DNA of 63,716 bases, counting the filler, from Asterionella formosa (lineage: Eukaryota), in the NCBI GenBank assembly GCA_002256025.1. It is 7 parts of 7 records of this genome, joined end to end, with 100 filler letters (N's around TTAATTAATTAA, not from the genome) between each part and the next. Parts side by side here need not be neighbours in the genome. Positions count along the whole stretch, not along the records: positions 1 to 19,451 come from NKIB01003672.1; 6 more parts are not named here. One strand, written 5' to 3'. A program made the translations under genes and the position numbers. The notes below the pieces were generated by a model. The model was not told the DNA's origin and did not search any database. It was given only the letters and a program-made list of their open reading frames with translations. This document shows positions 5,091 through 28,467 of this stretch, piece by piece (positions within the stretch are counted from its first letter, which is position 1; each line of letters begins with the position of its first letter).

Positions 5091-5109
5091 GGCCTGTTGG
5101 TCTCATGTC

Positions 5110-5480: not shown

Positions 5481-5488
5481 TTCGACCA

Positions 5489-6278
5489 ATGGTCCATTAC
5501 ACTTTTTGCATAAAAGCGTCCGAAAATGCATAATGAGTTAGTTGGGCGGGGCAACTCGGGATTTTCAATATTAATTTCTATCAATGATAGAAACTTTCCT
5601 AACTAAATTTTCAATGACTTTTTTAGCTGCTTAGTATATTGAAAATCGAAAAAAATAAATAAATTTGTACTACAGTAAGAAATCGGATGCATAATGTATC
5701 AGATGTACTACGTTTTCGACATGGAACACATCATACATACAACATAACTTGTATATACTTTGAACAGTCCGTATATATAGCGTTACAGATCATATATTCT
5801 TGGCATACATACTACTGGGTACCGGGGTACTACCATTACTTGCATGTGTGTTTGTACAGCTGCCTGTGGTATGGAGTCGATGAGACAGCAACTGCATCTT
5901 GACCATGACGAAATTATGGAATTGAATATCTTCACGAATATTGACAATGATCTATTCCTACTTCGCACGTGTAAGTAGACTAACATAGAAGATATTATAG
6001 TGGAATAATAGAAATTTTGCACTAGCATTGACAACAAAAAGTTGAAATCGGCGCTGGAAGTTGTTTTGGTCCTCATTTGCTCAGTTTTGAAGAAATGACC
6101 AAAACGAGACAGTGTTGAGTCCACAGTGATAAGCTTGATAACATTGACAAGATAAGGTTTTCTATGCTTTGAAGAAATAGTTGAGAAAACTTGAGCGACA
6201 GTATTCTCGGAGAGGTCACAACATCTCAAGATGCAAGAAATACCTCTACGTCAATTTTGTAGTGAGTTTCATGTAAGC
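5489..6278 (+). mobile_element. One end of a long-TIR DNA transposon family, copy 1
   Basis: About 790 bp colinear with 28468-29279. Starts GGTCCATTACACTTTTTGCATAAAAG, whose inverted homologue lies at ~14770-14922. Confidence 0.75.
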
Positions 6279-6419
6279 ACTAGCTAATTGGTGTCGCGGT
6301 CCATATTTCTATGGAATCTTGATTTGGTCATTTGACAGTTTACTATACTAGTAGACATACTTACAGCCATTCATTAATACACTGCTTGTTCTTTACGCAA
6401 ATAAAAACTTTGCATCGCG

Positions 6420-9400
6420 GAACTGCAACTGAAGGTGAGCATCATGAAAGGGTTGGAAACAATGAAACCCTTAAGGCAACAGTAATTGGTTATTTTACGC
6501 TAGAGCAGAAGGACACAAGGAAAACAATGAAATTGGAAAAAGTCATGGTTGTTCCTGGTTTTGCTCGAAATTCGATAAGTGTCGGCAGGTTGACGAAGAA
6601 AGAAAACGAGTTTGTGGCTGGAAAAGATGGATCCAAGATATTAATGAGTCCTCTGGTGATACTATCATGAATTTTGAGACAGGAACTGATGATATGGCTT
6701 ATCTGATTGCAAAGAGTGTTAATGGAGCAAAAGCGTTCTACAATATTGAAGAAATGAAAAATAATGGTGAAGAAACAGAAGGGAGAAGTAATGAACATCG
6801 AGGCCCAGCACAGAAAATTTTGGCATGCACTGAAAAAGTGGTGCGAAAAAATGCTGCAAGCACTTGAGATCGTCATACCAATTGGAAAAATGTCGGTATG
6901 CAACCAAAGCTGTGCACAACAAGCAAATGCTAGTACCAAGAAAACAACAAATAAGGTGACTACGTATGGAGCAAGAAAAAATGGCATAACATACTATCTA
7001 CGGTGTGACAATATGGGCAAGCATATGTTTGATCTACGAAAAATATGTGAAGGGGAATATGGAATTCAGTTAGACAAGGACACAGCTCTCCCCACACCAC
7101 TCCAAAATGGAATCGTGGTTTTCACTTGCCGCAAAGCGTGGACTGGAAATGATGATATCTGCTGCATGGACAAAAGAGGCAGGTGCAAGCTAAATTATGG
7201 TCTGGGAGGCGCGATAAAGACTGCAGAAATAATGGGAAATTCCCTTCCAAATACACGAAGTTCAGTACCACCTGATGAGTTATTTTATGGAAAACCAAGT
7301 GACATATACAGACACTTGATTGAGATTGGAAGAGTTCTTGGCTATGCTACAAACAGGTCTGCAATGAAAGGGAAGTTCAAAGAAAAATCAAATCCTGTGG
7401 TAAAAACCACCCCAGCAATGTGTCTCATTTCTTAAATCCAGTAACCAGTTAAGTGGGTGAAAAAAAGGGGTATTCATGCTTGGGCAAACATACCAAATGC
7501 TACCAATGATATCATATTGATCTTGAGTTGATTTTGGAGGAGCCAGAACGACCTCCAGAAGTGATTGAAGAGCCTGAAGGCAGTCCTCCTGTCCAAATAA
7601 TACCCACTTATCATGAGGATGAATTGGTGGCGTCCATATCAAACCTGGATTTTCCATTGTCTGTAGCAGGGAGGATGTATGAGGAGGAAAAGAAAACTTG
7701 ACGAAAAAGGCTCAAGAATTGAGCAAGAAAATTCTGATGAAAACGAATAGGGAGATGAAGAGAGTGATGAGTCAAATTTGATGCAAAGAGACGGCAGTGA
7801 TGATGATGACTTGCCAGAATTTCATCTGAGACCAAATGCTCCAGAAATGGAGACTTGTGGAGCAGATGATGACGCCATGGAAACTGGTGAGCAAGATGAG
7901 AATGAAACGGCTAGTAGTAGGACGAGGAATCGAAGTCGTGCCAATCATAATTGAGGATGATGAAAATGGAATAAGGACACGCAATAAAAGACGGATCAAG
8001 TGGCATTAAATGCAAGAATAGTTTCAGATCCTGGAGAAGCCATGGATGGTACTAACGGTGACAAGTGAGAACCATCAGCAAGAGCAGAAATCAACAACTT
8101 TTTATGAAGCGATGCATGGCGTAAGTTTCCAAGAGAAAATTTGAAGGACCATAAGCCCCATACCCGTGAAATGGATATTCAAGAAGGTGGAGGAACAAGA
8201 CGGTTCTCAAAGGTTCAAGAGCAGAATTGTCCTGAAAGGCCATGTATGCAGAATTTCTAGAAGGCATGGTAGAACTCGGATTTATCACAGAAGAAGAAAA
8301 GAAGAAGTTTGTTTACATGCTTACAAGAGCCATGTATGGTGGATTCGATGTCCCAAGACTTTTTATGAAGACACTGAGCAAATACTTAACGAAGGAAATG
8401 AAGATGACTCAGAGCTTGGTAAATCCATGTTTATTTTACTCAGAGCGTGGTAGATGCATGTTTATATTACTGGAAGAGTAAAGTGGATAAATTCATTCTA
8501 ATGGCTGTGGTACGCACACGTTGATGACGTTTATTGATTGGAACAAAGACAATGATTGAAAAGTTCAAGTTGTAATTTCAGAAGTGGTTCAATATTTCGG
8601 ATTTGGGAAGATTGAAGACGAAGCATCTTGGCGTATGGTATGAATGGAAAACTGATAATAATGCTGAAATCTACACTGTGGCTAGTATGACAAAGTTGGA
8701 GGATGAATTTGTTGATTCATTCGAAAATATAATTGGGAAGAATGTTAAGGAGACAGAGACACCAGGATATCCAAACAATTTCCTCAGGACAAATCACGGA
8801 GAACCAATAAAATGACGGAATACTGTGGTTCCATGGTTGGGAAAGAGTGTATTTGATGACAAAGTTGTCGTATTTGATGACAAAGTTGACGCCAGATCTG
8901 GCAAAACCAGCGCAAGTGTTGGCATGGCGCAACATCTGGCAAATCTAGGCGAGGACCACTGGAAAGCACTTGAAAGATGATTGGTTGGACACATTAAAGC
9001 AAGATACTATGATGGGCGGGTTGTTGACATATTGGAGCCCAAAGAAGCTGATGCCTACATCATTTGTGGACTCAGAATTTACAAAGAATAGTATTGATGA
9101 CAGGAAGAGTGTTTTGTCTGGTCTACATTGGTGAACTGTGAGTCGAAGACACAACATGTAGTTACATTGACAGGCACAGAAGCTTATGCATATCATCTGA
9201 GAACAAATTGATATCCATGATACTTGAAGAAGTGATGCAATATCCAAAAGAGGAGAAATTGGGAAATTGGTTGGGCGTGTAAACAAAGACATTTAGGAGC
9301 TATCTATTTGGTATTTGATAAAGAACCAACTTGTGGGTGCATGGACAAAGCATATCGGTGTCAGGGCAAATTTCATCCAAGAACTTGAAGATCAGGGATA

Positions 9401-9535
9401 TTTGATGATCATGGTACAGTTTGTATAATCAGAAGAGAACTCAGCTGACATACTAAACAAGAATGGTCCAGAGAAGTTGCACACAAAGCACGCATCAAGG
9501 ATAAGGAATAGGAATCTTGAATGTTGGAGGGAGGA
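6420..9535 (+). mobile_element. Second, different degenerate Ty1/copia element (pol region)
   Basis: Protease end VVPGFARNSISVG; integrase YLRCDN..TPLQNG; RT KWIFKK..DGSQRFKSRIVLKG and HVDD; RNase H FVDSEF and KHIGVRANFIQEL; polypurine tract GGAGGGAGGA at 9526-9535. Confidence 0.85.
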
Positions 9536-10005
9536 TGTTGAGGAAATACGACTTCTGTTAGCAGCAGACAGAAGTGTAACTAGTACTGCAATGACTGCAC
9601 AGCAGTCGGAATGACCAACGGTCATGAGGAATTCCATGGGACACCAAGAAGGTCAGTTCAGGAAAATATACGGGATTCGTAAATGGAATAGCAATTCTTA
9701 TAGGAGATCAAGTCCAACTGCAAGATTAACTCATAAGACTGAAACGATTGGAATCACAAATCTTATGAAATCGACCAATGAGAAAGAGTGGATTGAGGTG
9801 ATGAACAAGTCCAAGAAAGTAAGATTCATGAAACAAGATCAATTTGGTAAGACCACCAAGTAATTTGGCAAGATTGATAGAAAAATTAATCTGAAGTAAT
9901 CACAACATGATTAAAAAAGGCAAATCTAAAAGCAGATTAAAGTGTTGTCGAAAACTAGCTAGTGGAGAACTAGTCGTAGTACTGGAGATCTGGAACATCT
10001 CAACA
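9536..10005 (+). repeat. Probable 3' LTR of the second copia element
   Basis: Follows the PPT directly and is bounded by a perfect 7-bp inverted repeat TGTTGAG...CTCAACA. No second LTR copy is in the window. Confidence 0.65.
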
Positions 10006-10550
10006 TATGTCTGCAGAGGATTATCTCACCAAGGCTATCCCAATTATTGAGGAAGCTTGGGACAAGAAACTACGCCAAAGGGCGTCCTCATCCCTACTAC
10101 CAGCTGCATACCATCCCAAGATTGATGTCAGCCTCCTATTGAGTGAGGATGATGCTTTATATTGGGATCCTAGGAGTACAATGCATGGGCAACTGAGTTA
10201 GCATGAATTGATTTAATGCATTCGGTTGCACTCATGTTGAGATTTAGGATCACTCCACGTGAGGGACACATGGAGGCAGTGCTTCAAATATTTGGTTATG
10301 TGAAAGGGCACCTGCAGTCTCAGCTCGACTTTGATCCAGGCAGCTTCCAGGGATTGGGCGGACTACAGTTGATTGGTATGACCATGGTGCTGATTGGAAA
10401 GAATTCTACTGGTACCCTGATGCTGATGAGTTACGTTTCCACCAAGGGCACCAGAGGCTCCTTGGGAATGAGGTACAGATCAACATCTTTGGTGATGCTT
10501 AACATGCGACCTGCCTTGCTACTCACAGATCAACGACAGGCAGGGTATGT
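10006..10550 (+). mobile_element. Fragment of a further copia RT/RNase H
   Basis: MSAEDYLTKAI..YHPKIDVS..PREGHMEAVLQIFGYVK..FDP and FGDA.HA...RSTTG motifs, frameshifted. Confidence 0.8.
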
Positions 10551-10863
10551 GTAGTCCTGCGAGGTCAGTCTCGTGATATGCAGGCGACCGGTACAAACCG
10601 TTCGTACAAATAAGTTGACATTTGACCCTCTCGATTTAAGTCTGTTGTCCGGAATATTTCTAGTTTTCCTATCCAAGAAAGAGGTCGGGACTGATGGTCG
10701 TCGCTAGGTATTTTTATGTGATTTCCTTCAATAGCGCTAATTAGAACATTAGGTTCTGTATTCTCCCATCGTCGGTTTGATAGGAGAATTAGTCGACCAC
10801 CGGGCACCTGCACTTTGCATTTCCCACCCTTCACCAGAAAACGAACAGGAAAGAATAGAAGTG

Positions 10864-12135
10864 ATGAAGAATCCCAATCAATTCATTGCTTTGTCATTGT
10901 TATTCGCGGTGGTGATCGTCATTCAGATTCGGAAAATGCAATTTAATCTACAACAAACCCTGCAAACACTAAGGAATGAAACCGTAAGAGGCGAACGCGC
11001 TGAAGTAAAAATGCCAGCAATCGAATTACTGCCATTTGCCAACATGTCATCCGTAGATTATTTCCCATGTTGTGGTCTTGGTCATCGATTGTCTCGCATG
11101 GCAGATGCGGCATATGTTGCAAAAAGATTCAATTTCTCTCTCCGCACTTTTTGGGGTCGATGCAATCACGTGGAGGTTTACAATCATCTGTTTGAAAAAC
11201 CCCAGCCAGAAGACTTTCCACTTGTGACCAATCAACATGAGTTCCTACGAATTGATAATGGCATTTTTGACATCTCAACTTGGCATCGAGATACTACTAT
11301 AATCGGAAATGAATCATGCCAGCACGATGACAAGATTGCTTCCGACTTTGAATTCTACTCCAGATTGCGACGTAAATTTAGGATGAGAGAAAAAGTCGAA
11401 TCATTTAGGAAGGATAACTTTGAAGGATTTACTGTTATAGGAATTCATATTCGGGCAGGAAATGGCGAGACTGGCCATTTCGTTGCGGCTAATCGAGCAA
11501 TCGACAACCTTGAAGTTTGGATATCAAATGTTTCTCAAACCTTGATTGAATTTACAAACAAAACTAAGATGGCCAAGCCTCCCCTCCTCTTCATTGCAAC
11601 GGACACAACTTCAATTGTCGGAAATTTCAGCCAGGAACTTAAGGGTGTCATGTCTGTAAAGGAACTACCCCAAATCCGAAAGAGGGAAGGTGAAGGGGTT
11701 TAATTTGGACAGCAAGGTAAGATTGAGAAATCCGGCGATGCATGTTTATCTGGATGGGAATCCGTAGTCATGGACATGATTCTGCTGAGCTATGCCGATG
11801 TAGTCATTGCAGCACGATACAGTTCAATGACACAGACAATGCCCATGTCACTAGCATTAGGTCAAACACAACGAATAATGGAGCATTCATTTTGTGAAAT
11901 GGACCAACCTGGATCATCGATGCGTTGCTACAAGAATATCAGGGAATGGTATTGCCACCCGCAAACATCCAATGTCTTTGGAATGGAATCACAGTTTCGA
12001 CCACACAACATTGTAATATTTCACCCTCCAATGGACTTTGACTGGGATAGTCTACGTAATGATACGATGCCAAGAGGTGAAAATTGCATGGATACATATT
12101 GCATTCCAGCCAATGCATCAAATTATGTGCAATAA
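10864..12135 (+). pseudogene. Type II membrane fucosyltransferase-like glycosyltransferase with one in-frame TAA (11701-11703)
   Basis: N-terminal TM FIALSLLFAVVIVIQI; motif I VIGIHIRAG; motif II LFIATD; motif III DMILLSYADVVIAARYSS. ORFs 10777-11703 and 11770-12135 are in the same frame, and the stretch between them is open. Confidence 0.75.
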
Positions 12136-12329
12136 TTGAGTATGATCTACATACAATTCATACTAATGAGCACGAAGGGTTGGAGCTATGTGCAGTATTT
12201 TGAACCATCAAGAATCACCAATTTGTTGATAAATATTTCTTGTTTGTTTTTACATCGTGTGTAAATCAATCCCAAAAAATTCTTTATTCCTTGTAGGAGT
12301 ACACTAACAGAGCATTCACAGCCTTATGA

Positions 12330-12914
12330 CTAGGTGCACTTACTGTAGTGTGCCAGTACCAAGTCAGTCACAGTCGTCGCCAGGTCATTTGGGATGGGAA
12401 AGCTTAAATGGTACTGCAAAATCTTCCAACTGTCTCCTTCCAGCCTCAAGCTCCCAGTGCCCCTGGCACGCCCAAAGCGTTCGCTGGACAGTTGCTCATC
12501 AAAGCATGCGATCGTACCATCGTAGAGAGTCACGTTGCGCTTCACGCATGCATATGACCATCCCTTCCCACATTGAAATGCGGGTTCAGCGTAACACCGG
12601 AATTCCGTCATATTCCAGTTTTCGGATGGATCTGTTCCTATAAAGTGGCCGTCTGAGGAAAAGCAGTCAAAATAAGCGTCAATCTTGGCGTTTGCCGCAG
12701 CCGAGTGAAGTGTGTCTAGAAGCTGGTCAATGTCTGATGGATCTGGATCTTCATCAGTGGCTGCAACTTTCGACATGAACGCGTTACTGTATTGGCCCTT
12801 GATGTAGAAGGAATTGAGGCGTCTCCAATGACGATTTGTATCAAGTAATGAGAACCGAAAGGACCAAACTTGGCGAAATGTTAATAAGCTGAGGACAACG
12901 ACAGCCAAAGGCAT
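12330..12914 (-). CDS. SnoaL-like/NTF2-fold protein with signal peptide (possible plastid targeting)
   Basis: LDTLHSAAANAKIDAYF..FIGTDPSENW..RGTG..WKILQYHLSFPIPND resembles bacterial SnoaL_3 proteins. Hydrophobic N-terminus ending VWS|F. Confidence 0.85.
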   Translation of the reverse strand: MPLAVVVLSLLTFRQVWSFRFSLLDTNRHWRRLNSFYIKGQYSNAFMSKVAATDEDPDPSDIDQLLDTLHSAAANAKIDAYFDCFSSDGHFIGTDPSENWNMTEFRCYAEPAFQCGKGWSYACVKRNVTLYDGTIACFDEQLSSERFGRARGTGSLRLEGDSWKILQYHLSFPIPNDLATTVTDLVLAHYSKCT

Positions 12915-13109
12915 TCACATGAAGTTCTTGGTCGCGGCATTTTATGAAGCAAGACTCTCAATACACCAAGGCAAATTCCGGAATATAGATTTATTGGTAC
13001 CTGGTACCTGATGTTAGCACGCGGTACCAGTGTACTACGATACGACCCTGATATTTGGTATGTAACTCCAGAGGATACCATTACATACCAGTACCTGGGA
13101 CTACCACAT

Positions 13110-14170
13110 GAGCCTGTCACAACAAACAGAATTTCCAATTTGGAGGTCTAGACAGATATAATGCTCATTGATGGTCCAGACAGCACACTTGTAACCCGTA
13201 ATCCACTTCTGAATCATATCTGCATAATAGTTCTGCTGCTATTCTAAAGGACAGCACAAAATGAATTTCAGGAAATCATAGCAGGGGCAAGTAAAGCATG
13301 TGCCTTACCCTAAGTTTGGCAACTTTATTACTCTTTTTGGCATTCCTCAGCTCCTCAGCTTTCATTATCTCCATTAATACAGCTAAATCAAAAAATTCAT
13401 CATGCACAATTTGTGCATTAATAATGGGAAGGGCCTTTTGAACTCAGGATAATCTTCAAGCACACAATCAAAATTTTCACACAGACTAGCTGGGATGATG
13501 TGATTCCTTATCTCTGTTGTGCATGCTACTACTATGGCGACTTGATTGAACCTAATCATGTACTGGAATGCCATTTGCAACTCCATCATTTCCACACCAG
13601 ATAGCAGGAGAGAAACAAGAGCCTCTACCCTCTCATCATGTAACTTGATCTCAAAGAAAGATTTGATCATGGAATACTGGGTTAACAATCTTTTGTTCCA
13701 TTTTCTATGATAATCTAACAAGGATTGTATTGTCTTAAAGCAGCAGGGGTTTTAAAGGTACCTGCTTTCTTCATCAAAATCAAAATAATGAGATTCATAG
13801 CAGTAATTAGAAAGAAATTGGGTTGTTCCATCCCCCTTTCTTGATTGCTAGGTTATGCTTGGTGTGCAAGCCACATCAAACAAAAGAAACTCCAAGAATT
13901 CTTGCCATGACTTGATTCACTGGGACGTTTTCTCCAGTAAGGCAAGCAATGGTTTCACTATCTTCCAGTTTATGTAAGATTCTTGGTGATCTGAATGACA
14001 TGGAATGCTGCAGTCACGGTCTTAACAAATTCAGTGAATAGTGGTTGCATTGTCAATGGCGTTTCATGAGTAGCTAAGTTGGTGATGATGCCTATAAAAC
14101 GATGGCCATACTAACCTCCTGTCCATCTTTGCTGCTCCTTGATCATCCACCACCATCAATCTGTCATCCC
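13110..14170 (-). mobile_element. Highly decayed hAT-like transposase remnant
   Basis: Fragments such as YSMIKSFFEIK..LL..E...F..V...FDCVLEDYPEFK and a terminal LEILF...W resemble stramenopile hAT-type transposases. Many stops; boundaries approximate. Confidence 0.4.
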
Positions 14171-14769
14171 AAATCAGCCCTCACGGATCCAATGAATAAA
14201 AGTCCTTCATAAACCCTAGTTCCAAACTACAAAAGAGACCAAAACATAGCATTGGACTGGTCTGTGCCTATCTGCTTCAAGCGCCACTCTACAACAATCT
14301 CCGCTTCTGTTACCACTCTTAATTTTCCTTCCCTCCACCGACTCCCGCCTCTGCCTCCTGGTACATTCAGCAAGGTCCACACAGTAATGAACAAAAAAAC
14401 TGCCATCTAGCAAAGCCAGACCCGATCTCCCTACTTTTCCGGCCACCAAGGAAGGCATCTTACTCACTACTACATCCTCTGACAAAGTCTTCTCCTCCCA
14501 TCAAGTCCTCCCCAAAAACAAGCCCATAGCGCCTCCTGGAAGACCAACTCTAAATAGTAAACTACCAGGGTACTGTTCATAGAGCTTTACAGACCATCTT
14601 CACATAGTATCATCGTAAGTACAACATGCATGTATTGAGCAATGTCTAAGCATAGTAGAATCATCTAGGAATGACATTATATTGCAGCGAGTACCAGTAT
14701 ATCATGAAACTAACCCCCATAAACTGTTGATTTCAATGATAATATAAAAATTGTTCATATTTGCCGATA

Positions 14770-14922
14770 GTTCTTAGTGAACAAAAAGAATCATTTAGAT
14801 TTTATAACTGATAGAAATGATTATTGATTTGCTAGATATTTAGTAAAAGAAGGAAACACGAATTCCTGGACTAACTCATTGTGCATTTTCGGACACTTTG
14901 GTGCAAAAAGTGTAGGGGACCC
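14770..14922 (-). mobile_element. Inverted long-TIR end related to the 5489/28468 family
   Basis: Reverse complement GGGTCCCCTACACTTTTTGCACCAAAGTGTCCGAAAATGCACAATGAGTTAG...CTAAATATCTAGCAAATCAATAATCATTTCTATCA aligns with the start of 28468 over more than 100 bp. Followed by TTA. Confidence 0.7.
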
Positions 14923-15721
14923 TTACAGCTCTTTCCACTCTGGATGGCTCTAGCTTCTTCAGCCTACCATCATTTCATTTCATTCCCCTTCCAGCTAACT
15001 AATCGATACAGCGTGCTCTATTTTCACTGCATTATACTTCAATGACAGGCCTCCTTTCCCACAATATTTCTTTGCTATAGCTAACCCCTATGCTTCTTCT
15101 GTTATTTGATTACCAGCAAGCTGCCTTTCACCAGCATCCAACATGCCTCCCGCTATCAACTCATCTCGACTGCATCATTTCATTCATCGGAACATTGATT
15201 CCTTCTTAATATCTTCCTTCTTTGCATCCAAGAAATTCTTCCACCTCTCTCTTTCTCTCACCTTCTGAGACTATGCATCAAATGTCAATTCAAGTTTTCC
15301 CTAACCCTGCTTCAAATCTGATTTGTCAACTTAGTATGTTGTCAGAAAATCAGCTACTTTGCTCTCTATCAATTGCTGCTATGTCTACTTTTCTATCAAT
15401 GATGACTTTTTTCTCTCACCTTCTCCACCATCTTCTGAGTGTTGCATGGGCTCCTTGCCCAACACACCAAATATAGTTATCTTTGTGATGATGTACTACT
15501 ACTTTTTCTTCTAGTTTTGGTGTAGCTCGCTTGAGTGAGGCATTCAGGAAGTTTTGGACATTCATGCCCATAAAAATATACACCTATATATGTACTGTAC
15601 ACAGGCATCATGGTGCCTGGCAGATTGTTGCATAGAGTTGTCATCGTTCTTATATCTTAGATTTCAGGAGTCAGTCTACTGTCAATTGTATCTGTTTTTA
15701 AACTCATATACTATTCTGTAT

Positions 15722-15870
15722 TTTTATGTTTAATAGGTTTCGAATAACAATTTAATTACAGAAACAGAGTACCGGTAAATGTTCACGTCTACCGGTAGTA
15801 TGTAATAAATAAAAACGCATTTTTTCGTATACATATAAGCCGACCCCCCTTTCATAGAAAATTAGCATGT
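15722..15870 (-). repeat. Dispersed repeat homologous to 22174-22310
   Basis: Inverted alignment sharing GGGTCGGCTTA, CGAAAAAATGCGTTTTT, TAGACGTGAACAT and TTTCTGTAATTAAATT. Confidence 0.75.
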
Positions 15871-16189
15871 TCCTTGTCTACGTAATTAGTTCTTTTAGGA
15901 CGGATTAGGCACCAGTGTTGCCGGCGATTGGACGCCATTGTTTTCGTCGACTTCACAATTTTGAATAGTGCTACCGGTAGTCGTACTTATATGTATACAT
16001 TGGCAGGATATCCCCTTCTGATATATCGAATGCGGCTTTAGATATTAGTTTTCCCTCTTGATCTTTCAACACAGGAGATCAGAATGCTGCCGTCAAACCT
16101 GTCAACCTTGATTAAATATCTCGCGCTCTGAGTTCAATTTATCAAACTCACTTTTCATTACTTCGTCTATTGGTGAACGAGTTGTCAAC

Positions 16190-16921
16190 ATGTCCAAGAC
16201 AAGCGCATCGCAAAAGACCGTGATTAAGAACCTCATTCAATCCACGAAACGAGAGTTCCGTAAGGCTGCCAACCCCGAGACCGCCATGGGAATGCAAAAT
16301 TATATGAAAACAACCATGCCCTGCTACGGAATCAAAGCTCCGCAGCGCCGTGCGATTCAGACTATCGTTTCAGGGGACCTTGTCATGGATTCCCCCATTG
16401 CCTACGAAACTTGCCTCCGAGCACTATGGGCACTCCCTCATCGAGAAGAAAAGTATTTTGCCATAGACACAGCAATCCACTACAAAAATTTCATTGAACT
16501 GGAAAACTTGGGATTATACGAAGAGATGATAAGAGCAGAGTATGCGTGGTGGGACCTAGTAGATCCTATTGCTATCCATTTAGTTGGAGACGTTGCCTAC
16601 CTGCATCCCGAAACATTAGAACCAATCTTGCGCCAATGGATAAATGACGACAACATATGGATTCGTAGAACTGCCATTTTATGTCAATTGAAACACAAAA
16701 AGCGGACAAACCAAGACATGCTCTTTGAATTTTGTCGAGAACGTATGCATGAGAAGGAATTCTTTATTCAGAAGGCCATAGGCTGGGCATTGCGATCGTT
16801 TGGCAAGTTCGCACCAGAAGCTGTGATTTCCTTTTTAAGGAAAGAGAAACCGTATTTGAGAAAATTGAGTTATCGAGAAGGGTCGCGAATACTTATTAAG
16901 GAAGGCAAGATGAAAGCATAA
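16190..16921 (+). CDS. alkD: AlkD-family DNA alkylation repair glycosylase (HEAT-like repeat)
   Basis: Intact 243-aa ORF with LWALPHREEKYFA, WWDLVDPIA, WINDDNIWIRRTAILCQL and EFFIQKAIGWALR. Confidence 0.92.
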   Translation: MSKTSASQKTVIKNLIQSTKREFRKAANPETAMGMQNYMKTTMPCYGIKAPQRRAIQTIVSGDLVMDSPIAYETCLRALWALPHREEKYFAIDTAIHYKNFIELENLGLYEEMIRAEYAWWDLVDPIAIHLVGDVAYLHPETLEPILRQWINDDNIWIRRTAILCQLKHKKRTNQDMLFEFCRERMHEKEFFIQKAIGWALRSFGKFAPEAVISFLRKEKPYLRKLSYREGSRILIKEGKMKA

Positions 16922-17403
16922 GTGCACATGATGTTTGACGTCGCCAAATGGCTGTCCACGCCGATACTAAAGTGTCAGCCTACATACACCAAACGATAAA
17001 AATAAATTGTACAAAACTTGAATCCTCATCAATAATCCCATCCATCGCACATTAAAAAGAAAAAGAAAATCTGGCATCGAAAGCACATACTCTCTTTCTA
17101 AACATATCAGCACTATATGGTATCTTGTGTTGAAGTTAACTTGGCTCGCCTTGGTGACAGTCCACAATTGAAAATCTTTGTCATTGTAATTTATTTCTCA
17201 TATATTTACGAACATCTTAGATTCAGAAACCATTCATTTCCTTAGCGGGGCTCAAAAAATCCCATCATATACTGGAGATGAGTTTCACTACCAATCAATA
17301 GTATTTGAAAGCAGTTTCAACCGTCCTGCATATCCTCAGATGAAAGATAACAAACGAAAATGTTTGAATCTTATTCCCTAGTCCCGCCACTTTTCCCAAT
17401 TGA

Positions 17404-19038
17404 TCAATCACAAACACCACATGTCTCAGGACAGTTGTTATATCCTGGCTGGCCAACCTTACACTGGCTCGTCATATAAAAACGGTTCATTGTGAGCCAA
17501 TGACAATCTCGGAGAGTGCCGTTGACGGTGAACATGTTGGTACTGTCAACGCAATTATCTGTGCACTTCCCACAAGTCTCCTCGCAAATACCATATGCAT
17601 TGCTTGGATGACTTGAATTACACAAGACATTTCGATAGACTGGATTGCACTCATATCGGAGCCATGAACAATTCTGGAAGCCAACGACGTCGTCAACAAG
17701 GAAGTTAACAATGTCGGTGTCATCACAAATCACATGAGGGGAAATTGGCAAAGCAGCCCCATACCCTCCTCCTGGTCCTGGACAAGAGTTACACGACTCA
17801 GTGCAAAGGTCATACGCCGGTTGCCCTGGGACACATATCTTATCTTGCACATCAAATCTAATGCTCAGCCATGCACAGTTTTTGATTTTATTGTTGTAGA
17901 GGAATTCGCTTCGGCGATTTTCTGTGCACGAATCAAAACATTTTCTACATGTCTCTGGACAAATGTCATATGCTCCAGAAAAATGATCTGGTTTGCAATA
18001 AATAGATTGTTCCTCAATTCTCGCAGCCAACCAGATGCATTTTTGCAATCGCTTCTCTGTTGTACCAAAGACATTGACCACCACATCAACCAAAAATTGT
18101 ATAGTTTCTGAATCATCGCAAGGTAATGTAATTTTAGAAGGAGGTTGCGAAGGAGCATTGGTGGGCACGGCAGTAGGTACTTGCGAAGGAGCATTGGTGG
18201 GAATGGCAGTAGGTACTTTCGAAGGAGCATTGGTGGGCACGGCAGTAGGTACTTGCGAAGGAGCATTGGTGGGCACGGCAGTAGGTACTTGCGAAGGAGC
18301 ATTCGTCGGTACTGCTGTTGGTAGAAATGTGGGTGCTCCTGTTGGAAACATCGTTGGCGGATCTGACGGAGCAATTGTCGTATTGTCTACTGGTATACCA
18401 TTTGAAACTGAGACACTTGTCACTTCATTAATGCCTGCAGCGACGAGATTCTGAAGTAGGACCATGTTAAAATTCTGTATCTGTGCCTGCAAGAGTCGAC
18501 GGACAGCATCATTAAAAAGTTTGACTCCGTTGGAACATGACCGGCATGTCCCAGTAACTCTGTAAGTATTCACAAGAGAAAAGGAGCGAAGGCGTCGTCG
18601 TTCTCCTGGAGGAAAGAATACTTGGTCAGAGATTGTGACATTATCGAATAGGATGCCTTGATCACACGCCACAACGTCGTTGTAGGTATCTCGCAGAACT
18701 GTTTGGACGGTAGAGGTCGCATTGAGATCAAAGACACCGGTTGGGCCACCGTAGGCGACATAAAAAGTCGAAGTAAAAGGATTTGTTGTTGCTGTAACGG
18801 CCACAACCGGTGGTTTCGTCCCTCTTACTTGCTTGAAAATTTTCAGCAGATCCCGACTAAAGTCTCCGCAAAACGCGTCAGGCGGAGTAACTGAAGGGCT
18901 CGGTGTGGGCGATTTTGTTTTCCACACATCAAGCTTTTTTGGCCGCTTCGTATTTCCACTCTTGATTGGCTTGGCATCAATCGATGTAAGAGGAGCCATC
19001 AGCAGTGTAGCAAGCAGAAGTATTGTTACTGGATTCAT
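17404..19038 (-). CDS. Secreted Pro/Thr-repeat and Cys-rich protein (cell-wall or extracellular matrix candidate)
   Basis: Signal peptide MNPVTILLLATLLMAPLTSIDA (upstream in-frame ATGs up to 19068); Lys-rich stretch; RRRL and RRLL sites; PTNAPSQVPTAV repeats; four Cys modules C..W(L)..C..C(P)E(T)C..C. Confidence 0.88.
   Translation of the reverse strand: MNPVTILLLATLLMAPLTSIDAKPIKSGNTKRPKKLDVWKTKSPTPSPSVTPPDAFCGDFSRDLLKIFKQVRGTKPPVVAVTATTNPFTSTFYVAYGGPTGVFDLNATSTVQTVLRDTYNDVVACDQGILFDNVTISDQVFFPPGERRRLRSFSLVNTYRVTGTCRSCSNGVKLFNDAVRRLLQAQIQNFNMVLLQNLVAAGINEVTSVSVSNGIPVDNTTIAPSDPPTMFPTGAPTFLPTAVPTNAPSQVPTAVPTNAPSQVPTAVPTNAPSKVPTAIPTNAPSQVPTAVPTNAPSQPPSKITLPCDDSETIQFLVDVVVNVFGTTEKRLQKCIWLAARIEEQSIYCKPDHFSGAYDICPETCRKCFDSCTENRRSEFLYNNKIKNCAWLSIRFDVQDKICVPGQPAYDLCTESCNSCPGPGGGYGAALPISPHVICDDTDIVNFLVDDVVGFQNCSWLRYECNPVYRNVLCNSSHPSNAYGICEETCGKCTDNCVDSTNMFTVNGTLRDCHWLTMNRFYMTSQCKVGQPGYNNCPETCGVCD
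18146..18318 (-). repeat. 36-bp coding tandem repeat (about 4.5 units)
   Basis: Unit TGCGAAGGAGCATTGGTGGGCACGGCAGTAGGTACT on the + strand, encoding VPTAVPTNAPSQ on the - strand. Confidence 0.9.
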
Positions 19039-19300
19039 AGTGATGACAGACCTTTTCATATGAAGCATTGATTTTCAATGAGGGCGAGCAGGTTAAGTCA
19101 TGATAAGGTACGAAATATCTAAGGGTCGTTTTTCTACCATAGGACAAATTCAGTAAACATCTGGTGTCGTCTTTTTGATTCGGCACAGCCAATTCTTAAT
19201 CAAACAAGGGGCATTTATGGAAATCAAAACAGGGTAACCAGTTAAACGCATGTTCGAGATTGGTCATACATACATAGAGAATACAGGTATCAAAGGAGTA

Positions 19301-19451
19301 TACCGTATACTTCATTGTCCTGGACCCCCCCTATGGTTGCTGGACCCCCCTGTACATTTTTCTCGAGGTGGAACCAAACACCCAATAATTTTCTTGTCAT
19401 AGACAAAGTAACGTGCCATAATTCTTTTTGTCCTCGTAGGCACTAGTATGT
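19301..19451 (+). mobile_element. End of Tc1/mariner(pogo)-like element at contig edge
   Basis: TA|CCGTATACTTCATTGTCCTGGACCCCCC with an internal repeat of CTGGACCCCCC. Near-identical over ~125 bp to the reverse complement of 41715-41841. Confidence 0.8.
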
Positions 19452-19551
19452 NNNNNNNNNNNNNNNNNNNNNNNNNNNNNNNNNNNNNNNNNNNNTTAAT
19501 TAATTAANNNNNNNNNNNNNNNNNNNNNNNNNNNNNNNNNNNNNNNNNNNN
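19452..19551. other. Artificial 100-nt contig linker (also 39003-39102, 40309-40408, 41615-41714, 42920-43019, 44225-44324)
   Basis: N44-TTAATTAATTAA-N44 with stops in all six frames. Pieces measure 19451, 19451, 1206, 1206, 1205, 1205 and 19392 bp. Confidence 0.97.
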
Positions 19552-19705
19552 TAAGAAGTGGTATACCAGTATATTTCTCCGATGGTGCATGTCGTCTTCT
19601 TGCGTGAAAATCATGAAACAAAGAGGAATGTCCACGTAAACTCTGGTACCTGGTACTCCGCCTAGTAGAAAACAGATGTGGCGATTTGCCGCGACTCAAG
19701 TACCG

Positions 19706-20746
19706 GGTTCCTCATAAAAGGTGCTGAAAACACGTCATAAAGGAATCTTAGCCTATCTCTCCCCCACCTTCATCTTTTTCGATATTTCTTCTGATGTATT
19801 ATACAATATATCCATTTATTGTAATTCATATGTTACCTTGCCGGCGTTTTACTTTGAAGCAAATTCATATATTACCTTGCCGGCGTTCCATTCCACAATT
19901 TACAGCACAATACGGTACCTGTACTAGGTAGTTGTCTCAAATGCATAAAAAGTAAATGCTCGATGCTGGACCACTGCTGCATTGCTTAGTTCACCATGAT
20001 CATGGTTCATCCTCTCATTTTCCCCAATGAAGACACAAGTGATTCTCGTAATGAGGACGCTCAGCAACAGCGCCAATGACCCTCAGTCCAGCCGGGTATT
20101 TTAATGTGTCAGATCGCTTGGGTGTGGCATTTGATAGCAAAATAGACGTCAAGCATCGTGGCAGTGAGAACAAGATGATTGGAGATTTCATTGGTGATGA
20201 GCCTTCGCATAAGATCAGTGAAAAAGTACTTGAAGATACCAATAATGACAACGGCGGCGATGTTTAGATTGGTGGCACTACTGTACAACTGAAAGATCCC
20301 AATGGTACAGTTGTCATGTCAACCATGACTGACTGCAATGGTAACTTCACGTTGAATGCTTCTCCAGGCATGTACACAATTGTCAAACAGACACCTCCTG
20401 GATTCGTCAATGTTGGCAGCAGCACAATTTCTGTAAATACAAGTGCTGCAAATGTTTTGAACATTCATTTCGATGACCAACACCCCATCAATACTCCCAA
20501 GTGTGAGTGGCTGCCTCTCCAGTTACTTTTTGCTTGGATCAATTTCCAGAAGTGTCAAGGATGATACCAACAACAATGATACTAGTGAAGACACTAACTT
20601 GGTAGGTGTGACTGATACTCTATAGGGTCCAAGTGGTAATGGCCCTATTCTATATACTACTGTTACTGACTTCAATGGCGACTTTGTGTTGGTGAATTTG
20701 CCTAATGGCAATTATTTTGTTAAGAAGATCATCATATCAGCCATTT
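19706..20746 (+). repeat. Dispersed repeat carrying a pseudogenised SdrD B-like/Cna-B domain fragment, copy 1
   Basis: ISEKVLEDTNNDNGGDV*IGGTTVQLKDPNGTVVMSTMTDCNGNFTLNASPGMYTIV and a second domain ..VGVTDTL*GPSG..TTVTDFNGDFVLVNLPNGNYFV. Homologous to 54882-56063. Confidence 0.75.
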
Positions 20747-22093
20747 CTGACCAGAAAGTATGATATGTAGATCTGAAATCAATAAAGTTGATTTCTACAC
20801 CATCCTATACTACGTTTGATCAAAGCATATTGATCATATGATCAATGGTGTCATTGAAATGAGAAAATGAACTATCCAAATATATTTTAAGTTGCAGGAT
20901 AAATTGATATTTAAAGTAAGATTCAATGATGATCCTAAATGTATGGTATTCAGTTTTCCACTCCGCTGTATTAGGGTAGCACTCCCATCACACAAGAAAA
21001 TACCATGTATGCTGGTGTAGGTCCTGACTTTTTTTGTAGTTGATCTATATATATATTCAAATTAATATATGATTTTTACCATATAAAAAATAGCTGTATG
21101 ACTCTTGCTAATTGAGGGGCCTATCAGGTCGTGGAAATCAATGATATCATCATGCGTTGCATAAATTTGAATAATGTATAAGATTCACTGATGATAGTAT
21201 ACACATGATGTGCGATGTAGTAGTAAAGAGTATCTTTGAACTATGCAAATGTTTCTCTGTATATATATATATATATAAATTTCATAATTTTATAAATGTA
21301 TAGCTAGTACATGGCTGGCTAATACAGTTGCTGCATCATTTCTATACATACATCCTGTTTGCCATTCATAAATATTCTTGCTTGTATTTCTTTAGACACA
21401 GGCACTGATATTTTAGCTAGTATTGCATACATCCATCGGCGTTTATTTCCTTAGTATAGCATCTTCTACTAACAGCTAGCTGTAAATACAGGGAACATGT
21501 GCACAACATCCAACTACTAGCCAGGCTGCTTGTCCATTCAAAGAAACATTTTTCGGAGGCAATAAGACTCTATATATATTCTCATGATAATCAGGTAGTG
21601 CTTATATACAGAGTTTTTAACATCATGCGAATATTACTGGATTTTACATATATTTTGTGTATTTATAAAAGAACAGTACATGGTACATGGTAAAGTACAA
21701 GATACCAGGTACCAGGTACCAGTACCTGGTACTGGTAATTATAAAATGATAATCTGTTTTATAGCCCATTCATACTCCCCTTTTCAAGGCAAGTATTCAT
21801 TGTGCTACCTGCGAACACGACATGTGCTTCCCTGGTTTTGTTAGCATAGGTGAGTCCCCAACCACCTTTTGCAAAAGTTGATTGTCTTAGCCACAGCATT
21901 AGGGGAAACTCTGACTGCCTAGGAAGGCAGCACAAGCTGCTTGTAAGGGGGCAATCCCACCATATCTTGCACACTAAGCAAGACCTAGAGGGACAGTAAG
22001 GAGTGTGGGAGTCGAACCCAACAATAATAAATTGCCGGAATCAAACCACACAACTTCAGATCATAGGCATTGTGCTCAACCAACTACCAGGTA

Positions 22094-22899
22094 CCTCTGT
22101 CTAGTAACAGTTGCATCGATTCGCCGGCACCACCAATGTCTTTACTGTTCGCATATGAAGGATTATGTAGCCTACATACTAAATTTCTACGTGTGGGTCG
22201 GCTTACTCGAAAAAATGCGTTTTTTATGAGTTACATAGACGTGAACATATACTCGGTTTCTGTAATTAAATTTTTAGCATAAAATAAATAAATCGAAACC
22301 AATTTAACATACGTATATACATTGCATACGTATACCTATCGCCAACTGCTGTTTCACATCGGCCGGCCAGTCAAATATTTGCGGGAAACCAGATACAACA
22401 ATCCACTATCATAATTATAACATAAATAGAATAATTGTCGTTTTGTATACTTTCTACGGTTGTTTAACCTACCGGTACTTGGACCATGCCACCTGATGTT
22501 TAACGGTTACAAAACTCAAAACGAGCATACCGTCGTTTTCTTCCTTCCCACCATCGCCACTTTCGGGGTCGCACATTCCATAATTGAACGCAAGTTTCAG
22601 TTGTTCAACTGTTATGTCGTACTTTGTACGTATGTTGAGAATAGATGGTTCGAAGAAAAATGGGTCCTCATGCATCTCCATTTTGCTCGAGATAGCTACA
22701 AGTGAAAATCGAAAAATCCCAAAAACGTTTTTTTCAAATGTAGTTGCCAATTTTAGTATTATTATATATAATGTATACATGATTCTGTAGCTTAGAGCAA
22801 GCCGAACAATAGGGCAACTGAGCCGGAGAAAATCGTAGGAGTCAAAATGGCCCCGGATAAATTTGAATTATCGATGCAACTGTTACTAGACAGAGGGAG
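22094..22899. mobile_element. Stowaway-like MITE / non-autonomous mariner
   Basis: Perfect 27-bp TIR (22094-22120 vs 22870-22896). The right end reads ...ACAGAGGGAG|TA, i.e. TA|CTCCCTCTGT. The left end lacks the outer CTC. Confidence 0.8.
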
Positions 22900-23456
22900 T
22901 ACCGGGTACCTGGTACCCGGTAAGCCATTCCCTCGGGTACCCTGGTACCAGGTACCGGCATATACATCGACAACACGCTCATTTTTCCTGAACCAAAGTT
23001 CTTTCTTCATACAAAAAATCGGGTGTGACGACTCCGACCAAAAGCAATTATCGTATGTAGCAATTGTACTTTGTTCAAAATTTATTTGTCTGTTCTACAT
23101 GGAGGTAGAATTTATGGCATGCCCTTATTTTACCGTTGCTTGCTGCGCTATGTATGACCAAATTAATGCACAATGCACAACGCCACCACACAAAGCACAA
23201 ATGCCCAGAGTTATACATGTAGCTATTACGCGGTGGCATCAATGCTCTCCCTCCGCCCCTTTGTTGTCCTGTCCATATTTGATGCTGAACGGAAAGAACC
23301 AAGCGGCCCGGTCCACCTATCCCTTGCTTACTTCTTGGATTGCGTCCATTAAAATCCTGTCCACATCACTTCTCATTGGTTTTAGGGGCTCATTGAACAT
23401 CGCCGATAAAAGGTCTTGAGGTCTAGCCAGGGTCACCGTAGTTAGCGACAAAGGAA

Positions 23457-25334
23457 ATGGACGAGTCGGAGGGAGAATACTGCAAGAGCAGAATGACGAC
23501 CATTTCTGATTATCAAGCAGTAGGAGATGATTTCAAACAAGGTCACGAAACTGAGTCTCTGGGAATAAAGCAAATGGCTTCCAAGTGCACCAAGGTGTTT
23601 CAATCATCAACAGAGATGTCACCAAAAACCGTAGTCGATCCCAACAAAACCCCGATTGCAACATTGTCCAAGTCTGATTCAATTCGAAGGACTCTTCGAG
23701 AGAGGGAAAAGAGATTAAGCGCTTTGGTGAAAGAAAGCAGCTGGCGTTTGAACAGTGTAAGCGATGGGGTCCCTCCAGAAATGCCGATGACTGATTCGAT
23801 TGAATCTGGTTTTATTCCGGACAAATTACCGCCCATGATATTTGAAGGTAAAGAAGAATCGGATCGAAATGAAGCCATGAAAACCTTATCTAAAGCTATT
23901 TTGACTTTAAAAGGGAGACTCGAACAAGAGAAATCGAAAACATACGAATTGAAGAAAGAGGTCGCTGCCAGGAAGCTGTCATTTCAACGGAAGGGGATAG
24001 AAGCTCTGGGCCTTGTATCCGAGACGAGAAAGTTGAAGGAAACAAACGAAAAATTAGAGGAGGAAATGGTACATTTGAAAGAACAGTTGGAGGAACATCA
24101 AGCTGTGGTGAAGAACATTCAAGCTGAAAATTTTATGTTTAAGCGAGAGGAAGTGTCTCTTCGGGGCCAGCTTGTCGTTGCCAGACAAAAAATTCAAAGT
24201 GACTCTACTTCCCAGAGAGAACATCTTGATTTCTTAGAATACGAAGTTCTGTCCAAGAACGAGAAAATTGACAACTTGAAGCAGGAACTGAACGAAAGAC
24301 TTAAGCGGATTGTTGAGCTAGAGGTGGCGCTAGAGACTCACAGCCATCGCTACCACGAATCATTTATGGAATGGGTTAGAAATGATGGAGCCATGAGTTA
24401 TGGAAACGTAGATACCGGTGCAGCTTTGATGGATACACCGCTAGGTCAGGATCCACCGGAGATTTTGAAAAAACCTATCTTGACTCAGGGTATCTCTCGA
24501 TTCTTTCGTCGCTTGAAAAGCAAGAATAAAATCGGAAGAAATCAACAATTCTTTTTTCGCACAGCTGCACCAGGCAACCTTGAAATCCGCTTGCGAAGTG
24601 AAATAGCAAGCTTGGAATCCAGATACATTCGCGATCAGTTCGCTGCCAAGATTAAGATAGAGGAGTTGAAACAAGAAAACAGCGAATATCGGATCCAGAT
24701 TCTTTCTACTTTAGAGCTTGCGTCTACCCAGCAAGTTGGACCCATGAATGCTGGATCCTCTCACCCGATCTCAAGTCTCCCCTCCCGTACACGCTTTCTT
24801 GAAGAAAAGGTCGCGTCCCTCGAGAACGAGCGAACACTTCAGTCTCGATTAAATGAAAATCTCAAAACTGAAATAGTTCGGCTTGAGGTCAACTCCAAGA
24901 AGCAGTCACAGCTAAATGAAGAAGTGTTGCAAAACCTTCGCCTCGATAACGAAGTGAAAGATGTCAAGTTGTCAAGCTTTGAACATGAACTAAGAACGAC
25001 CACAGAAAAGTCATCAGACTTCTCAAATTATATCATGCAGTGCAATACAATTTCTGGGCTAGAGGCAAAGCTTCGAGAGAGCTTCACGGAAAAATTACGT
25101 CTGCATCGGGAGGGCGAAGTCAAAGACATGACGATTAATGCACTTCGCCAAGACATTGTGGGACTTCGAATACAGTTGTTTAAAAACCAAGACGAAATTA
25201 CACATTCCGGACAAGAGGTTGTAAATCAAGGACTAACTTATCGGGATATGGATACGATGCAATCTGGTGTCTGTAACCATATGGAATTTCAGGCCTTGCC
25301 TGCCGTTAAGCTGTTACATGTTCATAATGAGTGA
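23457..25334 (+). CDS. Long coiled-coil protein of unknown function (625 aa)
   Basis: Intact ORF with an E/K/L heptad pattern over most of its length. Confidence 0.85.
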   Translation: MDESEGEYCKSRMTTISDYQAVGDDFKQGHETESLGIKQMASKCTKVFQSSTEMSPKTVVDPNKTPIATLSKSDSIRRTLREREKRLSALVKESSWRLNSVSDGVPPEMPMTDSIESGFIPDKLPPMIFEGKEESDRNEAMKTLSKAILTLKGRLEQEKSKTYELKKEVAARKLSFQRKGIEALGLVSETRKLKETNEKLEEEMVHLKEQLEEHQAVVKNIQAENFMFKREEVSLRGQLVVARQKIQSDSTSQREHLDFLEYEVLSKNEKIDNLKQELNERLKRIVELEVALETHSHRYHESFMEWVRNDGAMSYGNVDTGAALMDTPLGQDPPEILKKPILTQGISRFFRRLKSKNKIGRNQQFFFRTAAPGNLEIRLRSEIASLESRYIRDQFAAKIKIEELKQENSEYRIQILSTLELASTQQVGPMNAGSSHPISSLPSRTRFLEEKVASLENERTLQSRLNENLKTEIVRLEVNSKKQSQLNEEVLQNLRLDNEVKDVKLSSFEHELRTTTEKSSDFSNYIMQCNTISGLEAKLRESFTEKLRLHREGEVKDMTINALRQDIVGLRIQLFKNQDEITHSGQEVVNQGLTYRDMDTMQSGVCNHMEFQALPAVKLLHVHNE

Positions 25335-25513
25335 TAACCTGCGTTTAGGTAAGCGATAATTGGAGTGAGTTTATTTAAGATTCAGCGAGTCAGTTTATTT
25401 ACAGTAAGCTACAAACAAAATTGTTAGCAAGAGAATCAATGCTAAGTTAAAAGATGTCATAATGGATTATATTGTATACGTCGCTATTCAATGGCACTTA
25501 TCATCATGCTGTG

Positions 25514-28460: not shown

Positions 28461-28467
28461 CTCCCAC

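Follow-up and report, generated by a model that had tools for sequence, protein, structure and literature searches.

What leaves the same few bases, CC and GG held between two TA dinucleotides, again and again in the non-coding DNA of a freshwater alga? The question is raised by a 63,716-base stretch of the Asterionella formosa assembly GCA_002256025.1 (hereafter the window, meaning all of the DNA that was analyzed), in which an earlier reading made from the sequence alone (the sequence-only reading) had picked out short words of the form TA-CC(N)GG-TA and likened them to the marks that Tc1/mariner transposons leave behind on excision. Here, we confirm that these motifs occur well above chance, and we consider it probable that TA-CC(N0-2)GG-TA words are excision footprints, or scars, of cut-and-paste elements that duplicate a TA and have CC termini. 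The transposon that made them would most likely be of the IS630-Tc1-mariner type.

Motif counts and their background

The window is a concatenation of at least ten contigs, seen as ten ACGT blocks (1-19451, 19552-39002, four of ~1.2 kb, and four of 2-5 kb) with N44-TTAATTAATTAA-N44 linkers or simple N runs (144, 779, and 750 bases) between them. The sequence copies compared below therefore lie on different contigs, and counts were made over 61.5 kb. In this DNA, TACCGGTA occurs 17 times, TACCAGGTA 12 times, TACCTGGTA 11 times, TACCCGGTA three times, and TACCGGGTA once, with a further 12 occurrences of TACCAGTA, five of TACTGGTA, and one of TACCGGGGTA; longer centers are few (CCGGGG, CCATGG, CCCTGG, and CCAGGG). 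The total of 66 motifs, made up of 49 that we call strict (TACC(N0-2)GGTA) and 17 that read TACCAGTA or TACTGGTA, falls into 40 clusters, or into 52 chains when motifs that share a TA are joined, and 30 of the clusters consist of a lone motif in unrelated sequence. The sequence-only reading had described such motifs as recurring through non-coding DNA, and every coordinate it quoted proved right to within 1-3 bases (TACCTGGTA at 331, 12998, and 56726; TACCACCGGTA at 38877; TACCGGTA at 5356, 15770, 15790, 15972, 29948, and 42135).

None of 100 dinucleotide-preserving shuffles reached the observed counts, either for TACCGGTA (17 against a shuffled mean of 0.24 and maximum of 2) or for TACCWGGTA (23 against a mean of 0.22 and maximum of 3), and under an order-3 Markov model TACCGGTA was the most over-represented of all 8-mers (17 against 1.02 expected). 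Among words of the type TA-X-TA, where X is 3-6 bases, the top words all belonged to the CC..GG family, with P=9e-21 for TACCGGTA, P=3e-31 for TACCWGGTA, 17 against 2.14 for TACCAGTA/TACTGGTA, and 4 against 0.16 for TACCSGGTA. The excess is also specific with regard to the retained bases. Given 16 possible classes in which two bases and their reverse complement lie between TAs, CC..GG was found 17 times against 0.49 expected (27 against 0.62 with a central base), the sole other class in excess was the (TA)n microsatellite, and the remaining 14 classes numbered 0-4 against 0.22-1.97. Where a single central base is present, it is A in 12 cases, T in 11, C in three, and G in one.

Outside long open reading frames (ORFs), the window contains ~1.5 motifs per kb, and ~4% of TA dinucleotides there flank a scar. 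Just one of the 49 strict motifs lies within a long ORF, although long ORFs make up 31% of bases and 20% of TAs (P=2.9e-7 by bases and 2.6e-4 by TAs). This sole exception, at 54650-54657, is of the 6-bp, frame-preserving type and reads N-T-G-N in the N-terminal part of an ORC5-like ORF, the true start codon of which is uncertain. The TACCAGTA/TACTGGTA motifs lie within long ORFs in 4 of 17 cases, and one TACCAGTA outside them (28832), a single substitution away from its paralogue, seems to be a chance match. A genome-wide count of these k-mers against a Markov background, split into coding and non-coding DNA, was a check that the sequence-only reading had itself put forward; made within the window, against Markov and shuffle backgrounds and split by long ORFs, the count returns strong enrichment and an avoidance of long ORFs. 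In the mechanism proposed below, selection would purge scars from coding DNA.

Apparent insertions at TA sites and the proposed joining of donor ends

Each of the 52 chains was replaced by a single TA and then searched against the window and against three further loci (L001-L003), which came from a scan of metagenome_contigs with the 22-base word beside position 32101. A paralogue spanning the site was found for seven of the 52 chains. Four of these (5820, 15770, 15790, and 32101) are clean insertions of X+TA, and at all four of these indel-type sites the removal of the scar together with one of its two bracketing TAs restores the empty site; the other three (28832, 32328, and 32379) are common to the paralogue or differ from it by substitution. 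No strand is assigned to the scars, nor to the stacks and arrays described below.

Two of the four insertions lie in the same old repeat fragment, where a TACCGGTA scar at 15770-15777 is followed, 12 bases on, by a second TACCGGTA scar at 15790-15797. Both carry a CCGGTA for which 22234-22254, read as its reverse complement, has no counterpart, as the sequence-only reading had noted; the first is inserted at a TA relative to paralogue position 22250 (reverse complement), and the single-TA version of either scar matches the paralogue apart from the insert of the other. The TACCGGGGTA scar at 5820-5829 yields, upon replacement with a single TA, an ungapped 142-base match to 28759-28900, in keeping with the earlier observation that CCGGGGTA is present here and absent at about 28829. 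Equally, the CCTGGTA of the TACCTGGTA scar at 32101-32109 is indeed absent at 32297. This event can be polarized as an insertion, given that the TA is empty in seven of seven paralogous copies, all ungapped (window 32297, two copies in L001, one in L002, and three in L003). Polarizing indels through repeat copies, another of the checks put forward with the original observation, thus succeeded in part, giving an insertion at this one site. The other three indels (5820, 15770, and 15790) are two-copy comparisons, which we take as insertions on grounds of plausibility.

The ancestral flanks at 15770 and 15790 hold no CC or GG that could have served as a template for the inserted CCGG, as would be expected for bases that came from a foreign end. 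At 32101, the derived sequence and the pre-existing flank together form a perfect 10-base palindrome. A hairpin (P-nucleotide) origin of the inserted bases was considered and rejected, as it fails at 15770/15790, and its fit at 32101 is a coincidence owed to a CCAG that was already in the flank. The wider flanks of the motifs are strongly biased, with a G before or a C after the outer TA at 50 of 104 flank positions, compared to a background of 22% (P=4e-9). Furthermore, CC follows 17 of the 52 chains and GG precedes eight. The word GGTACC is found 41 times where 9.9 would be expected, and in 34 of these cases it touches a motif chain.

Such a G-TA-C bias, the frequent outer CC/GG flanks, and the palindrome that the 32101 insert forms with its pre-existing flank are also what one might see if a non-transposon enzyme had made nuclease breaks at G-TA-C/GGTACC, which were then repaired by end joining with short palindromic filler. 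We regard this as quite unlikely, given that CCGG was inserted at 15770/15790 in spite of ancestral flanks without CC or GG, that more than 30 unrelated loci have practically the same CC..GG filler, where templated or random filler would differ, and that a repeat end starting TA|CCG exists in the window.

In the excision mechanism that we favor, the transposase would cut the 3' end of the element exactly and the 5' strand 2-3 bases within the element. Each donor flank would retain its TA and a 3' overhang (CC/CCN on one side and GG/NGG on the other), and host end-joining would seal both flanks. Overhangs of CCG and CGG could pair via CG to give TACCGGTA (17 cases), or through a 1-base mismatched overlap to give TACC(C/G)GGTA (four cases), and CCA/TGG-type overhangs, which have no microhomology, could give TACC(A/T)GGTA (12 and 11 cases) and, rarely, the blunt product TACCATGGTA (one case). 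Alternatively, a 2-base CC overhang might be joined blunt to give CCGG, or with one added base to give the 5-base centers; the 2-base and 3-base overhang versions both fit the observed scars. A symmetry of A and T at the central base is expected if either strand of a mismatched overlap is fixed. The two central-base variants to which the sequence-only reading had drawn attention do fit end-joining of 2-3-base 3' overhangs, both in their A:T ratio of 12:11 and in the dominance of CCGG. Two parts of this account are ones that we infer, namely that the breaks were made by transposase excision and the identity of the family responsible.

Several of these steps have been described in characterized systems. 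According to one source, Sleeping Beauty and mariner nick 3 bases inside the element and the donor flanks keep 3-base 3' overhangs, footprints of non-homologous end joining are equal to those overhangs, and the target-site duplication is TA (PMC7827188). A second source gives cuts 2-3 bases inside the 5' ends for Tc1/mariner elements, the 3' ends of which are cut exactly, and, for ISY100, backbone religation that produces TA + 2 + 2 + TA junctions (PMC2170065). The words in the window resemble the Sleeping Beauty/mariner footprint, as set out in PMC7827188, in having a duplicated TA around a few bases that would be end-derived, in their fit to end joining, and in their A and T variants (12 and 11). 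They differ from it in that the retained bases are CC..GG and not C(A/T)G, and in that overlaps of 0-2 bases would leave 4-6 bases between the TAs, the 3-base form not being enriched. To our knowledge, neither a density of ~1.5 per kb nor stacking into arrays is a feature of the Sleeping Beauty/mariner systems. With the 2-base stagger of Tc1/Tc3 and ISY100, the direct join of TA-CC and GG-TA is TACCGGTA; unlike in those systems, the 1-base centers seen here would need an untemplated base with a bias to A/T (23 against 4). The footprints of hAT and Mutator elements are likewise short palindromic additions at the excision site. These additions are copied from flanking host bases and accompany a duplication of 8-9 bp, whereas the duplication here is a TA and the CC..GG stays the same irrespective of the flank.

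Stacking, decay, and copying of the scars

Stacks in which scars share TAs occur at 21703-21737, 22900-22954, 38747-38761, 43183-43197, and 49200-49222. The first of these comprises five scars (CCAGG, CCAGG, CCAG, CCTGG, and CTGG) at the left edge of a high-copy repeat block, and the second is in fact two stacks (CCGGG, CCTGG, and CCCGG, then CCCTGG and CCAGG) directly to the right of a Stowaway-like element described below. A scar cluster in single-copy DNA (TACCAGTA, TACCAGGTACCGGTA, TACCACCGGTA, and TACCGGTA) lies at 38719-38937, and a cluster of six scars at 49130-49260, downstream of a 994-amino-acid ORF, includes the sole blunt-type TACCATGGTA (at 49206). A preference for G-TA-C would make each scar a preferred new target, which would explain the stacks; under the proposed mechanism, each scar would double a TA, become a target in turn, stack, and expand by slippage.

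What appears to be a scar array grown into a 7-bp satellite is found at 49527-49733, where (TACCAGG)n passes into (TACCAGC)n across a 144-N gap, with (TACCAGG)4.9 at 49527-49560 and head-to-tail perfect 7-bp units on both sides of the gap. Period-7 arrays were also reported by TRF at 21695-21732, 22899-22922, and 49200-49261. The (TACCAGG)4.9 array, its continuation as (TACCAGC)n, and the further period-7 arrays could be taken to mean that all of the motifs are pieces of a (TACCAGG)n satellite spread by slippage or unequal exchange, without any excision. However, we rate this as the most improbable of the alternatives weighed here. Head-to-tail repetition is confined to 49527-49733 and is not seen at the 30 single-motif clusters, and the motifs as a whole form 40 separate clusters, those 30 lying in unrelated sequence. 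Moreover, TACCGGTA, which is more common than any other single word, has an insert of 6 bp and not 7 bp, the units within arrays vary in center and length, and the insert at 32101 is no copy of its neighbor.

The scars also bear signs of decay. The observed/expected ratio of CpG is 0.64 outside long ORFs and 0.92 inside them, and TG and CA each stand at 1.25 over the whole window, values that suggest cytosine methylation aimed at repeats and intergenic DNA. When the single-substitution neighbors of TACCGGTA were divided into 12 classes, the CpG-transition class was enriched 8-fold (17 against 2.14) and the remaining 11 classes together 2.4-fold (27 against 11.4). The words TACCAGTA and TACTGGTA are most simply read as CpG-deaminated TACCGGTA, and the CCGG type of scar would decay at its CpG to these two words. 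An origin of TACCAGTA/TACTGGTA as an asymmetric joint was set aside in favor of CpG decay on the strength of the CpG ratio of 0.64 and of the 8-fold versus 2.4-fold enrichment. At 21717, some repeat copies read TACCAGGTA, indicating that one-base loss also contributes.

A neighbor spectrum dominated by CpG points to neutral decay rather than conservation, and this bears on whether the motifs might instead be functional protein-binding palindromes, either host regulatory motifs or sub-terminal transposase-binding motifs. Such a role would suit their palindromic form, their clustering, and their position outside ORFs and in many cases close to gene ends (such as at 49130-49556, beside the 994-amino-acid ORF), and it would also suit a tract rich in CCGGTA-like half sites at 43560-43760. 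We nevertheless hold it very unlikely, considering that the motifs are TA-duplicating indels within old, decayed repeat fragments, that their center is free to vary (CCGG, CCWGG, CCSGG, or longer), and that CpG-transition neighbors are enriched 8-fold as against 2.4-fold for the others.

The scars are real DNA, and not all of them are recent. A contig from another study spans 38434-39002, a stretch with four to five scars, and aligns to it without gaps and with a single mismatch; across studies, the scar cluster at 38719-38937 is fixed. In an overlay of contigs from four runs, no filled/empty allele was seen at scars among the indels and joints listed (12 of 69 and 15 of 224, respectively), and two of the listed rows had a 1-base difference inside scars of multi-copy repeats. 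The sequence-only reading had spoken of very active elements. We could not uphold this, in view of the scars at 38719-38937 being identical in the other-study contig, the CpG decay, and the repeat-borne and satellite copies.

Scars inside other amplifying repeats would be copied passively. Three regions (21499-23445, 26691-33829, and 35128-35776) have a summed contig depth roughly 100-1000x that of single-copy bins, a figure that serves as a rough guide to copy number only. The locus L001 is another copy of one of these repeats, with a mean column identity of 91% when end gaps are counted; the motifs that the window has at 32328 and 32379 recur in L001 at the corresponding places, and L001 has an intact TACCGGTA where the window reads TTCCGGTA. 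The region at 26691-33829 is itself of note: contigs from four runs, each of a different study, cover its ~7 kb several hundred times more deeply, in sum, than single-copy bins. The ORFs found there (e.g., 26701-27657, minus strand) have no match in Pfam, NCBIfam, or PDB, with homologues among metagenomic proteins only, and a 79-bp tandem repeat lies within it at 32126-32298.

Two further tracts contain related words. At 43560-43760, a 53-bp tandem duplication is dense in CCGGTA/CGGTA/TACGG half-motifs, which could represent either an accumulation of decayed scars or the sub-terminal, motif-rich part of an element. The word TACATGGTA occurs four times against 0.91 expected (at 21676-21692 and 150-170), including a tandem pair just left of the 21703 stack, and could stand for a minor class of scar whose left end differs.

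Candidate donors and genomic setting

A candidate for the donor of some scars is a dispersed repeat in which a TA is followed by CCGTATAC, identical over 18 bases at three loci (19301, 41841, and 127) with unrelated flanks. At 19301-19451 (plus strand), a TA followed by CCGTATACTTCATTGTCC opens a repeat end that runs into the end of its contig, and this would be the candidate donor family for the CCGG/CCSGG scars. The same TA|CCG repeat end is present at 41715-41841 (minus strand), where it is 98% identical over 127 bases, begins at a contig edge, and ends in ...CGG+TA. A short derivative of the family occupies 36-127 (minus strand), with an internal inverted repeat (36-56/98-118), a right end of ...TATACGG+TA, and a left end without the outer bases. 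The sequence-only reading had claimed a CCG-terminated, TA-flanked family at this site and others. The repeat end is indeed there (121-127, 19301, and 41835-41841); a complete element is not, the ends being one-sided, with about 150 bases of one end visible and two of the three copies reaching contig edges.

A second TA-flanked element lies at 22092-22901 (plus strand). It is ~0.8 kb long, with perfect 27-base terminal inverted repeats (TIRs) that begin with CCTCTGTCTAG, and its right end, ...CAGAGGGAG+TA, has three extra bases (GAG). With a length below 1 kb, a TA duplication, TIRs, no transposase, and a high copy number (a summed contig depth of ~100-300x that of single-copy bins, again a rough guide only), it qualifies as a Stowaway-like miniature inverted-repeat transposable element (MITE). 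Its sole ORF has no family match, and its fuller end, CTCCCTCTGTC, is one that we take to be close to the end of plant Stowaway elements. The element sits in a TA inside a scar array, and such TAs have thus been re-used as targets. In being TA-flanked and of high copy, it is like the Stowaway MITEs mobilized by mariner-like transposases, yet it makes a poor donor for CC..GG scars: its fuller end reads CTCCCTC..., the scars expected from such ends are of the CTC/GAG type, and TA-X-TA words of that type are not enriched here. We therefore set it aside as probably not the source of the scars. Searches of genome_contigs and viral_contigs returned no matches to this TIR or to the CCG repeat end, NCBIfam returned none for 10 repeat ORFs, and a 319-amino-acid repeat ORF had no meaningful sequence match in PDB, its six homologues having no Pfam domain.

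Might the footprints belong to another cut-and-paste superfamily with a 2-bp TA duplication? Duplications of 2 bp are made, for example, by ISL2EU-type elements, and such an origin would sit well with the lack of a transposase in the window, with a CCG family that shows ~150 bases of one end, and with the fact that Sleeping-Beauty-type TAC(C/G)GTA is not enriched. We judge it unlikely, if less so than the other alternatives. Retention of 2-3 terminal bases on either side, together with a duplicated TA, is the textbook pattern of Tc1/mariner elements (PMC7827188; PMC2170065), and a high-copy, TA-flanked, Stowaway-like element, of the type mobilized by mariner-like transposases, is present in the window.

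Excision by an IS630-Tc1-mariner type of element remains the reading that we prefer, and a number of observations weigh against it. Within the window, a complete CC-terminated TIR element was not found among TACC...GGTA pairs 40-9000 bases apart (25 pairs reached 12 or more complementary bases out of 16, the best being scar arrays that face one another and the others weak), and Pfam detected no DDE/mariner transposase among 77 ORFs of at least 90 amino acids (14 + 63); the link from scars to donor is therefore one that we infer. The CCG family is seen from one end only, and its TIR nature and superfamily are accordingly putative. It is also the only shared TA|CC end in the window, where no CCA/CCT-ended donor was found for the larger CC(A/T)GG class. 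For a CCG end, the fully overlapped scar predicted from Sleeping Beauty is the 3-base form, TACCGTA/TACGGTA, which shows no enrichment (6 against 3.96); three of its six occurrences are the repeat ends themselves. Polarity comes from a single site (32101). The outer CC/GG flanks could be decayed neighboring scars, or could reflect another process at GGTACC. Many motifs are not independent events: several lie inside a repeat with hundreds of copies, 12 belong to two arrays beside one repeat block, and another array (49527-49733) is a satellite. As to the excision-footprint interpretation given in the sequence-only reading, the enrichment, the TA-duplicating insertions, the ORF avoidance, the stacking, and the CCG repeat end stand in its favor, and the window supplies neither a complete donor element nor a transposase.

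The internal eliminated sequences of ciliates are reportedly TA-bounded, derived from Tc1/mariner elements, and removed by transposase-derived excision. The account given here is similar in combining TA-bounded elements with transposase-derived removal. Excision in ciliates is precise and developmental; here, by contrast, we see no sign that removal is programmed or somatic, and the 38719-38937 scars are fixed from one study to another.

The DNA of the window is eukaryotic. It contains an ORC5-like gene at 52157-54767 (minus strand), for which a protein atlas gave Eukaryota as the taxon and the closest homologues of which are 57-65% identical and all from metagenomic sources. This gene comprises two overlapping ORFs (53280-54767 and 52157-53365), which an intron, a frameshift, or an assembly error could explain. 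Further ORFs have AlkD-like, NodZ-like, SnoaL-like, and ferredoxin-domain matches in Pfam, a decayed Copia-type retroelement lies at about 6323-8450, and Rfam and ARAGORN gave no matches in the window. The DNA is present in public runs labeled as algal or freshwater metagenomes. Within a 556-amino-acid ORF at 17407-19074 (minus strand), which weakly matches the PT disordered-repeat family, we noted a 36-bp coding tandem repeat at 18145-18303 (4.4 copies, 95% matches). A 1.7-kb element at 59004-60703 has 31-base terminal inverted repeats (GAGCATCTCCAC...) and TAA on both sides, a PIF/Harbinger-like signature, and contains no ORF with a family match. At 44097-44219, the end of a 1.2-kb contig forms a MITE-like, near-perfect palindrome of 123 bases (42-base arms, 95% complementary).

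The N44-TTAATTAATTAA-N44 linkers, which place stop codons in all six frames, are located at 19452-19551, 39003-39102, 40309-40408, 41615-41714, 42920-43019, and 44225-44324. Since the window consists of separate contigs with linkers between them, features on either side of a linker are not to be assumed neighbors. Block lengths are near-equal in pairs (19451/19451, 1206/1206, and 1205/1205), followed by 5239/5228/5197.

Excision footprints are usually studied locus by locus in reversion assays. As a mark of transposition they are well known, and the present case stands out for how dense they are, for their stacking, and for the clean repair spectrum they preserve; no other k-mer signal in the non-coding DNA of this freshwater alga appears to be as strong. 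Full-text literature searches, judged by titles and abstracts, listed no paper on this motif or on such scars accumulating genome-wide, which is weak evidence of absence. The window holds at least 49 scars against three recognizable, one-sided donor ends, a ratio of over ten to one. A bolder proposition, which we offer tentatively and consider doubtful, is that, in this lineage, excision of a TA-targeting family is largely uncoupled from the survival of its elements, such that their departure, rather than their insertion, would be a major writer of non-coding sequence, reinforcing itself and giving rise to arrays and to a 7-bp satellite.

If the pattern is true genome-wide, the scars would be a natural record of double-strand-break repair, in which overlap lengths and the choice of central base can be read, with a built-in clock in the CpG decay of the CCGG class. 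They would also allow the termini and the target preference of a transposon to be deduced before its family has been found, and would provide an example of scars that seed satellites. For genome annotation, words such as these would otherwise be taken for regulatory palindromes.

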